From the NCBI RefSeq assembly GCF_050920415.1, contig NZ_CP169309.1: a stretch of DNA of 64,000 bases; one strand, given 5' to 3'. The notes under the pieces were generated by a model that ran no database searches, was not told the origin of the DNA, and saw nothing but the letters and a program-made list of their open reading frames with translations. Below, in pieces: positions 1,466 through 4,490 of this stretch. This DNA is from Escherichia coli (GTDB lineage: Bacteria; Pseudomonadota; Gammaproteobacteria; Enterobacterales; Enterobacteriaceae). Within the stretch, counting starts at the first letter, position 1. Every line of letters begins with the position of its first letter. Made by a program: the position numbers and the translations under genes.

Positions 1466-1696
1466 TTATTTAAGTTTGGGCTCGTAAGGTAAACGTGACA
1501 GATTGACCGAAGCCAAACGGTGGGCGATAAGCCGCTCGCGAAACCAGCTGCGCAAATGTTCAGGCTGTTCACGTTCAACCGCTTCAGCGATCACCGGCAT
1601 ATTGTAGCGTTCTTTAAATGCCACCCCGGCTGCCGCCAAATCGACATTCACTTTATCCATTTCTGTTTGATCCAGTTTAGCCAGATTCTTCAGCAT
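1466..1696 (-). CDS. holE: DNA polymerase III theta subunit
   Basis: ORF 1466..1783 (-); internal Met [35 protein letters not shown]... gives 76 aa matching HolE. Confidence 0.9.
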
Positions 1697-1834
1697 TCTT
1701 AATCTCCTCATCATTCGCGGGCAAAAGTTACTAAGAGTGAGCCTGGATGGCAAGCCGGAATTGATGATCCTCGACTCAGACATTAGACAAGGTTATGCTC
1801 TGTAAAAAAGTTATTACAAAAAGGAATAGATAAT

Positions 1835-2209
1835 ATGACTTCAACTGCACGCTCCTTTCGCTACGCGCTGGCAATCCTGACCACTACGTTGGTGACACCT
1901 TCCGTCTGGGCACATGCGCATTTAACGCATCAGTATCCTGCGGCAAACGCGCAAGTGACAGCTGCCCCGCAGGCAATCACTTTAAACTTCTCGGAAGGCG
2001 TTGAAACAGGATTCAGTGGTGCAAAAATCACGGGGCCAAAAAACGAAAATATTAAAACATTACCGGCGAAGCGGAATGAGCAGGACCAAAAGCAACTGAT
2101 TGTTCCACTGGCCGATTCGCTGAAACCCGGAACCTACACCGTTGACTGGCATGTTGTTTCGGTGGACGGGCATAAAACGAAAGGGCACTACACCTTTAGC
2201 GTGAAATAA
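1835..2209 (+). CDS. yobA: CopC-family periplasmic copper-binding protein
   Basis: ORF 124 aa with N-terminal signal peptide then HAHL... (mature N-terminal His typical of CopC Cu site). Confidence 0.9.
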   Translation: MTSTARSFRYALAILTTTLVTPSVWAHAHLTHQYPAANAQVTAAPQAITLNFSEGVETGFSGAKITGPKNENIKTLPAKRNEQDQKQLIVPLADSLKPGTYTVDWHVVSVDGHKTKGHYTFSVK

Positions 2210-2212
2210 ATC

Positions 2213-3085
2213 ATGCTGGCGTTTACCTGGATCGCGCTGCGATTTATCCATTTCACCTCGCTGATGCTGGTTTTTGGCTTCGCAATGTACGGTGCCTGGC
2301 TGGCCCCCTTAACGATTCGTCGCTTGCTGACGAAGCGTTTTCTGCGTTTACAACAGCACGCTGCCGTCTGGAGTTTGATCAGTGCCACTGCAATGCTCGC
2401 CGTTCAGGGCGGGTTGATGGGAACGGGATGGTCAGATGTATTTTCGCCAAACATTTGGCAGGCTGTTTTGCAAACGCAGTTTGGTGGCGTCTGGTTATGG
2501 CAAATTGTTCTCGCCCTCGTAACGTTGATCGTCGCCCTTATGCAACCGCGGAATATGCCACGTTTGCTGTTTATGCTCACTACCGCGCAATTTATTCTGC
2601 TGGCGGGAGTCGGGCATGCGACGCTGAATGAAGGGGTAACGGCGAAAATCCATCAGACTAATCACGCGATTCACCTGATCTGTGCGGCGGCGTGGTTTGG
2701 AGGATTACTTCCGGTGCTCTGGTGTATGCAACTCATCAAAGGCCGTTGGCGACACCAGGCTATTCAGGCGCTGATGCGTTTTTCCTGGTGCGGGCATTTT
2801 GCGGTGATCGGCGTACTGGCAAGCGGCGTGCTTAATGCATTGTTGATTACCAGATTTCCCCCCACGCTTACGACTTACTGGGGCCAACTCTTATTGCTCA
2901 AAGCCATCCTGGTGATGATTATGGTGGTCATCGCGCTGGCTAATCGTTATGTTCTTGTACCGCGCATGAGGCAGGATGAAAATCGTGCGGCTCCCTGGTT
3001 TGTGTGGATGACTAAACTCGAATGGGCGATAGGTGCGGTAGTGCTGGTGATCATCAGCCTGCTTGCGACTCTCGAACCTTTTTGA
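2213..3085 (+). CDS. copD: CopD-family inner membrane copper resistance protein
   Basis: ORF 290 aa, polytopic membrane protein, 3 nt after yobA stop (operon); matches YebZ/CopD. Confidence 0.9.
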   Translation: MLAFTWIALRFIHFTSLMLVFGFAMYGAWLAPLTIRRLLTKRFLRLQQHAAVWSLISATAMLAVQGGLMGTGWSDVFSPNIWQAVLQTQFGGVWLWQIVLALVTLIVALMQPRNMPRLLFMLTTAQFILLAGVGHATLNEGVTAKIHQTNHAIHLICAAAWFGGLLPVLWCMQLIKGRWRHQAIQALMRFSWCGHFAVIGVLASGVLNALLITRFPPTLTTYWGQLLLLKAILVMIMVVIALANRYVLVPRMRQDENRAAPWFVWMTKLEWAIGAVVLVIISLLATLEPF

Positions 3086-3097
3086 TGGATTACGAAA

Positions 3098-3439
3098 ATG
3101 ATGAAAAAAAGTATTCTGGCGTTTCTGTTACTCACCAGTTCTGCAGCGGCGCTGGCGGCACCGCAGGTGATTACCGTCAGTCGTTTTGAAGTGGGTAAAG
3201 ACAAATGGGCATTTAACCGCGAAGAGGTGATGCTGACATGCCGACCGGGCCATGCGTTGTATGTTATTAATCCGAGTACCCTCGTGCAGTATCCTTTGAA
3301 CGATATCGCACAAAAGGAAGTCGCCAGCGGGAAGACCAATGCCCAGCCCATTTCGGTGATTCAGATTGATGATCCTAACAATCCAGGTGAAAAAATGAGT
3401 CTGGCACCGTTTATAGAGCGAGCTGAAAAACTCTGTTAA
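3098..3439 (+). CDS. yebY: DUF2511 family secreted protein
   Basis: ORF 113 aa with signal peptide; third gene of yobA-copD-yebY operon. Confidence 0.85.
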
Positions 3440-3470
3440 TTACCTAAAATAGCCTTTTGATTTCCAATAA

Positions 3471-3509
3471 AAAACCGCCTCAGTTCTTTCACCAGAACAG
3501 GCGGTTTTT
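3471..3509. terminator. bidirectional intrinsic terminator hairpin (yebY / RyeA)
   Basis: 10-bp perfect stem AAAACCGCCT...AGGCGGTTTT flanked by A/T runs on both sides. Confidence 0.6.
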
Positions 3510-3596
3510 AACATTTAAGCTGATGACCACCACGCTTTTTATTGACCATTTTGCACGCAAACTGGAAAACCTGGCGTCGTCATCTATTCTTAAAGG

Positions 3597-3699
3597 GCAA
3601 GGCAACTAAGCCTGCATTAATGCCAACTTTTAGCGCACGGCTCTCTCCCAAGAGCCATTTCCCTGGACCGAATACAGGAATCGTGTTCGGTCTCTTTTT
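3597..3699 (+). ncRNA. sdsR: SdsR (RyeB) RpoS-dependent sRNA
   Basis: Sequence GCAAGGCAACTAAGCCTGCATTAATGCC...CCGAATACAGGAATCGTGTTCGGTCTCTTTTT matches SdsR as recalled; sigmaS-like -10 TCTATTCTT at 3582..3590; 3' terminator hairpin plus T-run. Confidence 0.7.
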
Positions 3700-3833
3700 A
3701 TCTGTTAAAAGCCAGAAGCATTCCCTTCGCTGACTTTATAGTCAACCATAACACACACTCTACTGTCTGAGTCCAGCGTTTTTTAACATTCTTGTTAAGA
3801 TTATGTGATCTTTAGCGCGGGAGGAAAATATTG

Positions 3834-4490
3834 ATGAAACAGCCTGCGCCCGTTTATCAGAGAATTGCGGGTCATCAATGGCGACATATCTGGCTTTCAG
3901 GTGATATACACGGATGTCTTGAGCAGTTGCGCCGCAAATTATGGCATTGTCGTTTTGATCCGTGGCGAGATTTACTTATCTCAGTGGGAGACGTTATCGA
4001 TCGTGGGCCGCAAAGTTTACGCTGTCTGCAGTTACTGGATCAACGTTGGGTTCGTGCGGTAAGAGGCAATCATGAACAGATGGCGATGGATGCGCTGGCA
4101 TCCCAGCAGATGTCTTTGTGGTTGATGAATGGCGGCGACTGGTTTATTGCGCTGGCAGATAATCAACAGAAACAAGCGAAAACGGCGCTGGAAAAATGTC
4201 AGTATTTGCCCTTTATTCTTGAAGTACACAGTCGCACCGGCAAACATGTTATTGCCCATGCCGATTATCCGGATGATGTTTATGAATGGCAAAAGGACGT
4301 CGATTTGCATCAGGTCTTGTGGAGCCGCTCACGATTACGTGAAGGCCAAAAAGGGCAGGGAATTACAGGTGCTGATCATTTCTGGTTTGGTCATACACCG
4401 TTGCGCCATCGCGTGGATATTGGCAACCTACATTATATTGATACCGGTGCTGTCTTTGGGGGAGAACTGACTCTTGTGCAATTGCAATAA
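3834..4490 (+). CDS. pphA: serine/threonine protein phosphatase 1 (PrpA)
   Basis: ORF 3831..4490; metallophosphatase motifs GDIHG, GDVIDRG, GNHE visible; 218 aa from second Met. Confidence 0.9.
   Translation: MKQPAPVYQRIAGHQWRHIWLSGDIHGCLEQLRRKLWHCRFDPWRDLLISVGDVIDRGPQSLRCLQLLDQRWVRAVRGNHEQMAMDALASQQMSLWLMNGGDWFIALADNQQKQAKTALEKCQYLPFILEVHSRTGKHVIAHADYPDDVYEWQKDVDLHQVLWSRSRLREGQKGQGITGADHFWFGHTPLRHRVDIGNLHYIDTGAVFGGELTLVQLQ

Follow-up and report, generated by a model that had tools for sequence, protein, structure and literature searches.

The closest described system is the yobA-yebZ-yebY (AZY) operon of Escherichia coli K-12 (PMC8689200, PMC11923076), and what is said below of metal binding, import and phenotypes comes from the literature on that strain. 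K-12 YobA holds one Cu2+ ion, with a KD of about 3 nM, and no binding of Cu+ was seen (Hadley et al. 2021, PMC8689200). Overexpression of YebZ leads to higher cellular copper in a copper-specific and energy-requiring manner (Palmer et al. 2025, PMC11923076), and this uptake is raised by YobA and lowered by YebY (PMC11923076). PMC8689200 describes YebY as a periplasmic, disulfide-bonded protein that binds copper weakly, and only after reduction. Among other bacteria, Bacillus subtilis YcnJ couples a CopC to a CopD for copper acquisition, in a manner resembling YobA and YebZ, and both protein families are common to AZY, the plasmid-borne pcoABCDRSE cluster and copABCD of Pseudomonas syringae.

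We analysed a stretch of 64,000 nucleotides from an E. coli genome (contig NZ_CP169309.1, assembly GCF_050920415.1), hereafter the window, which carries three consecutive genes of these families close to its first letter (Table 1). An earlier note made from the sequence alone had described a three-gene module with gaps of 3 and 12 nt encoding CopC-, CopD- and DUF2511-type proteins. The open reading frame list and the sequence give the same coordinates and the same gaps (2210-2212 between yobA and yebZ, 3086-3097 between yebZ and yebY), and Pfam, NCBIfam, RefSeq and the K-12 annotation agree on the three identities, far beyond what chance would give. We hold with high confidence that this locus is the chromosomal AZY operon of E. 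coli, a dedicated system for taking up and delivering copper at low levels and not a resistance determinant. The copper-handling role given in the note is thereby upheld and narrowed, and its description of the physiological role as only partly defined is outdated given PMC8689200 and PMC11923076: K-12 work published in 2021 and 2025 has already described and characterised this feature. The gene and domain identities, key residues, synteny and conserved promoter and leader motifs reported here were observed in the present analysis.

Table 1. Features of the AZY locus and its surroundings (positions are those of the window).
Feature	Position	Strand	Length	Description
holE	1466-1696	-		Divergent neighbour upstream of yobA; DNA polymerase III theta (Pfam 1e-38)
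Predicted -35 element TCGACT	1771-1776	+		CTCGAC (1770-1775) at least 95% conserved in the 55-sequence alignment
Predicted -10 element TATGCT	1794-1799	+		TATNCT in 55/55 sequences; TATTCT or TATCCT in other genera
Leader, Shine-Dalgarno and start codon	1819-1838	+		Predicted complementarity to FnrS, AAAAAGGAA + AGATAATATG
yobA	1835-2209	+	124 aa	Periplasmic CopC-type Cu2+-binding protein; signal peptide 1835-1912, mature from 1913
yebZ (copD)	2213-3085	+	290 aa	Predicted inner-membrane copper importer of the CopD family
yebY	3098-3439	+	113 aa	Periplasmic DUF2511 protein; signal peptide 3098-3157
GC-rich hairpin	3470-3509	both		Flanked by an A-run and a T-run; -19.8 kcal/mol (+), -20.7 kcal/mol (-)
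SraC/RyeA	3559-3703	-		Rfam match, 175 bits
SdsR/RyeB	3600-3699	+		Rfam match, 114 bits

The genes correspond to b1841 (yobA), b1840 (yebZ) and b1839 (yebY) of K-12 MG1655, with the same lengths and gaps as in the window, and the four genes from holE onwards are named holE, yobA, copD and yebY by RefSeq in the closest genome. They are flanked by holE, yobB and exoX on one side, and by the ryeA/sdsR small RNA pair followed by pphA on the other. Nucleotide identity to K-12 is 98.1% for yobA, 98.5% for yebZ and 95.9% for yebY, and the 138-nt holE-yobA spacer differs at a single nucleotide. A 2.1-kb query (1600-3700) had matches at 95-100% identity in all but one of 5426 complete E. coli genomes. 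At least 99% identity over 1600-3700 was reached in only 18 of these 5425 genomes, K-12 itself standing at about 98%, and the source lineage of the window is therefore relatively sparsely sampled within E. coli.

YobA matches the Pfam CopC profile over residues 27-123 (1.2e-27; score 97.1 bits, threshold 23.3) and the NCBIfam equivalog NF007636 ("CopC domain-containing protein YobA"; score 262.6 bits, threshold 129), and a PDB sequence search with it returned solved CopC and PcoC structures. The signal peptide is predicted to be cut between VWA and HAHL, in accordance with the mature N-terminus proposed in the earlier note, so that His27 (codon 1913-1915) is the first mature residue; alanine followed by HAHL is invariant in the Enterobacterales homologues whose N-terminus is readable. 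The protein carries H27, H29, D111 and H113, the latter two in a D111-G-H113 motif near the C-terminus, and no Met is present in its mature part, which is thus devoid of a Met-rich Cu+ site. With the profile match, the N-terminal His, the Asp-x-His motif and no Met-rich site, YobA belongs to the Cu2+-only class of the CopC family (PF04234). It differs from K-12 YobA at 3 positions, all of them in the signal peptide, and the mature sequences are identical.

YebZ matches the Pfam CopD profile (PF05425; 7.6e-26, 91 bits against a cut-off of 32.1) and, over residues 4-290, the NCBIfam equivalog NF033808 ("copper homeostasis membrane protein CopD"; score 296 bits, threshold 195). Topology was assessed from crude hydropathy: the profile has 7 strong peaks, a weaker eighth segment at about residues 49-70 was placed by eye, and basic residues are clustered in alternate loops. 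This pattern is consistent with about 8 transmembrane helices and with His135 and His154, both present in the window protein, lying on the periplasmic side. None of the 5 substitutions relative to K-12 (A40T, T74S, I93V, G214R and D257N) falls on either histidine. A PDB sequence search with YebZ found no solved CopD-family structure, even at E-values up to 1, and the geometry of a copper hand-off from YobA therefore rests on the published AlphaFold model (PMC11923076).

YebY matches the Pfam DUF2511 profile (PF10709; 7.9e-45, 151.6 bits against a cut-off of 21). The structural prediction that had been suggested for this protein is superseded by crystallography: 7N0J, the sole match of a PDB sequence search with YebY, is a solved YebY sharing 92 of 93 residues with ours, and its start, APQV, coincides with the predicted cleavage product. 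This match of the mature part, together with the signal peptide, bears out the view of yebY as encoding a small secreted protein. Cys48 and Cys113 are present. A single residue separates the protein from K-12 YebY (N52H). Position 52, His in the window and Asn in K-12, is freely variable among homologues, with G, N, H, K, Q and others found there.

To examine the locus across species, one genome per species was scanned with a degenerate DNA pattern encoding SVDGHKTKG, yielding 120 Enterobacterales loci. Among those with enough sequence, yobA, yebZ and yebY are colinear in 87 of 91 other Enterobacterales species, with median gaps of about 5 nt between yobA and yebZ and about 43 nt between yebZ and yebY. 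YobA H27 and H29, YebZ His135 and His154 (89 homologues) and the two YebY cysteines (86 homologues) are invariant in sets of 86-113 Enterobacterales homologues; the invariance of D111 and H113 in the species set is circular, as their codons formed part of the search pattern. Among the 83 species that have the complete set of three genes, mature YebY has a median identity to its window counterpart of 59%, mature YobA one of 55% and YebZ one of 42%, and YebY ranks above YobA in 68 of them. This was unexpected, and such a rank fits poorly with an accessory "safety valve" role. We consider it possible, though rather doubtful, that AZY is not transcriptionally copper-responsive. The cis-elements kept across the 55 species of the upstream alignment described below are a promoter of sigma-70 type, constitutive in appearance, and a leader complementary to FnrS. 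On this reading, the higher conservation of YebY relative to the CopC/CopD pair would hint that its real role has yet to be found and may be unrelated to copper, in keeping with its MlbQ-like fold.

The same conservation enters a reading in which the main role of the operon is periplasmic, YobA and YebY acting as chaperones that metallate cuproenzymes such as NDH-2, with import by YebZ as a secondary or overexpression effect. YebY surpasses YebZ in conservation in 83 of 83 species, NDH-2-dependent NADH oxidation is lower in yobA and yebY deletions and not in a yebZ deletion (PMC8689200), and the evidence for import leans mainly on overexpression of YebZ (PMC11923076). However, a triple deletion studied at native expression lowers the copper response of a CueR reporter (copA-lux) 3-4-fold and the activity of a mar reporter (mar-lux) by 80-90% (PMC11923076). 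Moreover, the YebZ variant H135A lowers uptake and H154A abolishes it (PMC11923076), both histidines are invariant, and the yobA/yebZ spacing stays at about 3-5 nt in nearly all species, which speaks for yobA and yebZ as a fixed functional pair. We regard a mainly periplasmic role as very unlikely, and favour copper uptake and delivery through YobA and YebZ. The three proteins nonetheless do not split the work cleanly. The reporter phenotype is seen in the triple deletion and absent in single-gene deletions (PMC11923076). Beyond the reporters, activation of mar requires AZY, as does tolerance to norfloxacin, ciprofloxacin and ampicillin, and this requirement is copper-dependent (PMC11923076).

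A second reading takes the operon for a resistance module like plasmid pcoCD or Pseudomonas copCD: copper in the periplasm would be bound or rendered harmless, and copper would switch on expression by way of a CusR/PcoR- or CueR-type operator. YobA/YebZ and PcoC/PcoD do have their CopC and CopD folds in common, and PMC8689200 mentions sequences resembling a "copper box" at -34 and -22 upstream of yobA, whose counterparts in the window are TGTAAAA (1801) and the perfect half-site ATTACAA (1813-1819). Yet pcoA, pcoB, pcoR and pcoS are not among the neighbours, YebZ shares only some 24% identity with plasmid PcoD, and AZY makes no contribution to copper tolerance or antioxidant defence (PMC8689200). 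The copper sensitivity of deletion mutants, raised in the earlier note as a check, is already published: tolerance is unchanged by deletion or overexpression of AZY (PMC8689200). The same note had named a missing copper phenotype together with missing metal binding by YobA as the outcome that would speak against its reading; metal binding is published, and a tolerance phenotype is absent, yet an uptake phenotype exists.

The sequence upstream of yobA bears on this question as well. We searched 1697-1834 for operators of the types ATGACAA-NN-TTGTCAT and CCTTCC-N7-GGAAGG, and found no match with 3 or fewer mismatches to the CusR box, a relaxed CusR/HprR/PcoR box or the CueR dyad, so that the CueR/CusR-type operator which the note had proposed to look for upstream of 1835 is not found there. 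Window-wide counts of matches to the three boxes were at chance level, and no inverted repeat with a 6-nt seed was found in the holE-yobA spacer. To place the published half-sites, we aligned this spacer from 55 loci with an adjacent divergent holE, from species of Enterobacteriaceae and Erwiniaceae. Only 4 of the 55 sequences contain TGTAAAA, and these have an upstream region of the E. coli type; ATTACA is likewise found in 4. Both are half-sites, and in the window their relative orientation does not suit a CusR-type palindrome. Since they are poorly conserved and lie downstream of the conserved -10 element, within the leader, a copper-responsive activator site at TGTAAAA/ATTACAA is not supported. 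Altogether we judge a resistance module to be exceedingly improbable, and retain uptake and delivery as the function of AZY.

In the same alignment, the pattern TCGACN-17-TATNCT keeps its 17-nt spacing in 54 of the 55 sequences, and in 39 of the 55 the end of TATNCT and the start codon are 35 nt apart. We infer from this arrangement that TCGACT/TATGCT is the sigma-70 promoter of yobA, with an expected start near 1806 and a leader of about 28 nt. A generic promoter scan reported nothing in the holE-yobA spacer, having missed the TATNCT hexamer. The promoter spacer and the bases near the -10 element (1777-1810) are semi-conserved, CATTATACAGGGTTATNCTCTGT being found in many genera, and a weak ACAG...CTGT dyad that matches no known regulator consensus flanks the -10 element in this interval. 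On the minus strand, the conserved blocks AAGTTAC and GGCAAG (1726-1754) read TTGCCA-17-TAACTT, a candidate holE promoter standing back-to-back with that of yobA. Genomic SELEX gave a weak peak for RpoE holoenzyme in the yobA/holE spacer (PMC5493296). The best sigma-E-like motif there, GGAATT (1757-1762) with TCAGA (1776-1780), was considered and rejected: the two elements are 13 nt apart, fewer than the roughly 16 nt usual in sigma-E promoters, and GGAATT is not conserved.

The regulator on record for the operon is the anaerobic small RNA FnrS: PMC8689200 and a table in PMC3688515 give yobA-yebZY as repressed in an FnrS-dependent manner. A conserved leader block, (C)ATAAC-AAAAAGGAAT, includes the Shine-Dalgarno sequence. 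As the likely pairing region of FnrS we chose its core between stem-loops (nt 38-78 of K-12 fnrS), which was hybridised in silico to 1800-1838 at -23.5 kcal/mol; none of 1000 shuffled sequences did as well, but this region ranks 4th of 77 open reading frame starts in the window. In the predicted duplex, two contiguous pairing blocks, AAAAAGGAA and AGAUAAUAUG, span the Shine-Dalgarno sequence and the start codon, the segments on the FnrS side being UUCCUUUUU and CAUAUUGUCU, which are predicted to pair with the yobA leader at 1819-1837. AAAAAGGAA is found exactly in 33 of 55 species. Pairing of FnrS with the yobA leader is plausible, and not proven, because other open reading frame start regions in the window score as well. 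Full-length FnrS against a 90-nt leader (RNAduplex) gave a long, uninformative duplex, 12% of random window tiles being as good, and this comparison was discarded.

The hairpin downstream of yebY (Table 1) is probably a bidirectional terminator common to yebY on the plus strand and to the convergent small RNA RyeA on the minus strand; in the K-12 annotation, ryeA ends 28 nt from the yebY stop. It was overlooked by a generic terminator scan, possibly owing to a bulge inside the stem. As in K-12, the overlapping antisense pair RyeA/SdsR separates yebY from pphA. In the most similar genome (NZ_CP169399.1, 4732-7101), a prophage with integrase, excisionase, RalR and RecT genes begins about 390 nt after yebY and takes the place of the pphA of the window (3831-4490). 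From the prophage found there in NZ_CP169399.1, the ryeA/sdsR region appears to be an insertion site, which may account for the contexts with yebY next to XerD or a CI repressor mentioned in PMC8689200.

We propose the following working model, in which the docking and hand-off between YobA and YebZ, the mechanism of YebY, the promoter assignment and the geometry of FnrS pairing are our own deductions. Transcription would be driven by the conserved sigma-70-type promoter at 1771-1799. YobA would be exported to the periplasm, its signal peptide being removed before His27, and would hold one Cu2+ with nanomolar affinity through the new N-terminal amine, the His27 imidazole, Asp111 and His113. It would then dock on the periplasmic face of YebZ, near His135 and His154, and pass the copper over, and YebZ, as an inner-membrane protein of 8 helices, would carry it into the cytoplasm in an energy-dependent manner. 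Disulfide-bonded YebY would damp this import from the periplasm. Imported copper would lead to oxidation of MarR and hence to derepression of mar, and NDH-2 activity may additionally be supported by YobA and YebY. Under anaerobiosis, FnrS would pair over the Shine-Dalgarno sequence and the start codon and shut down yobA.

AZY is one of few bacterial routes for copper into the cytoplasm, and is linked to mar-mediated multidrug tolerance. The biological case for it is already in print for exactly this locus. To it the present analysis makes small additions, namely the position of the promoter with phylogenetic support, the negative result for a CueR/CusR operator, the finding that the "copper box" half-sites are not conserved, and the identification of YebY as the most conserved component.

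Set against the described systems, AZY has neither the multicopper oxidase nor the outer-membrane and two-component genes of the Pco and Cop clusters. YobA has no Met-rich Cu+ site, and AZY confers no resistance phenotype (PMC8689200). The likeness to Bacillus YcnJ extends to sequence, its CopC domain matching YobA (PDB 9c14, E = 2.3e-10). In Bacillus, however, CopC and CopD are fused and the partner is YcnI (DUF1775), whereas E. coli has separate genes and a DUF2511 partner; the ycn genes are regulated by YcnK and CsoR, as cited in PMC8689200, and the known regulator of AZY is FnrS. The fold of YebY resembles that of MlbQ, a lantibiotic self-resistance protein, according to the paper describing 7N0J (PMC8689200), but the two proteins have no detectable sequence similarity and their genomic contexts differ. 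With the K-12 operon (PMC8689200, PMC11923076), finally, the window has in common the locus and its flanks, and the differences are allelic only.
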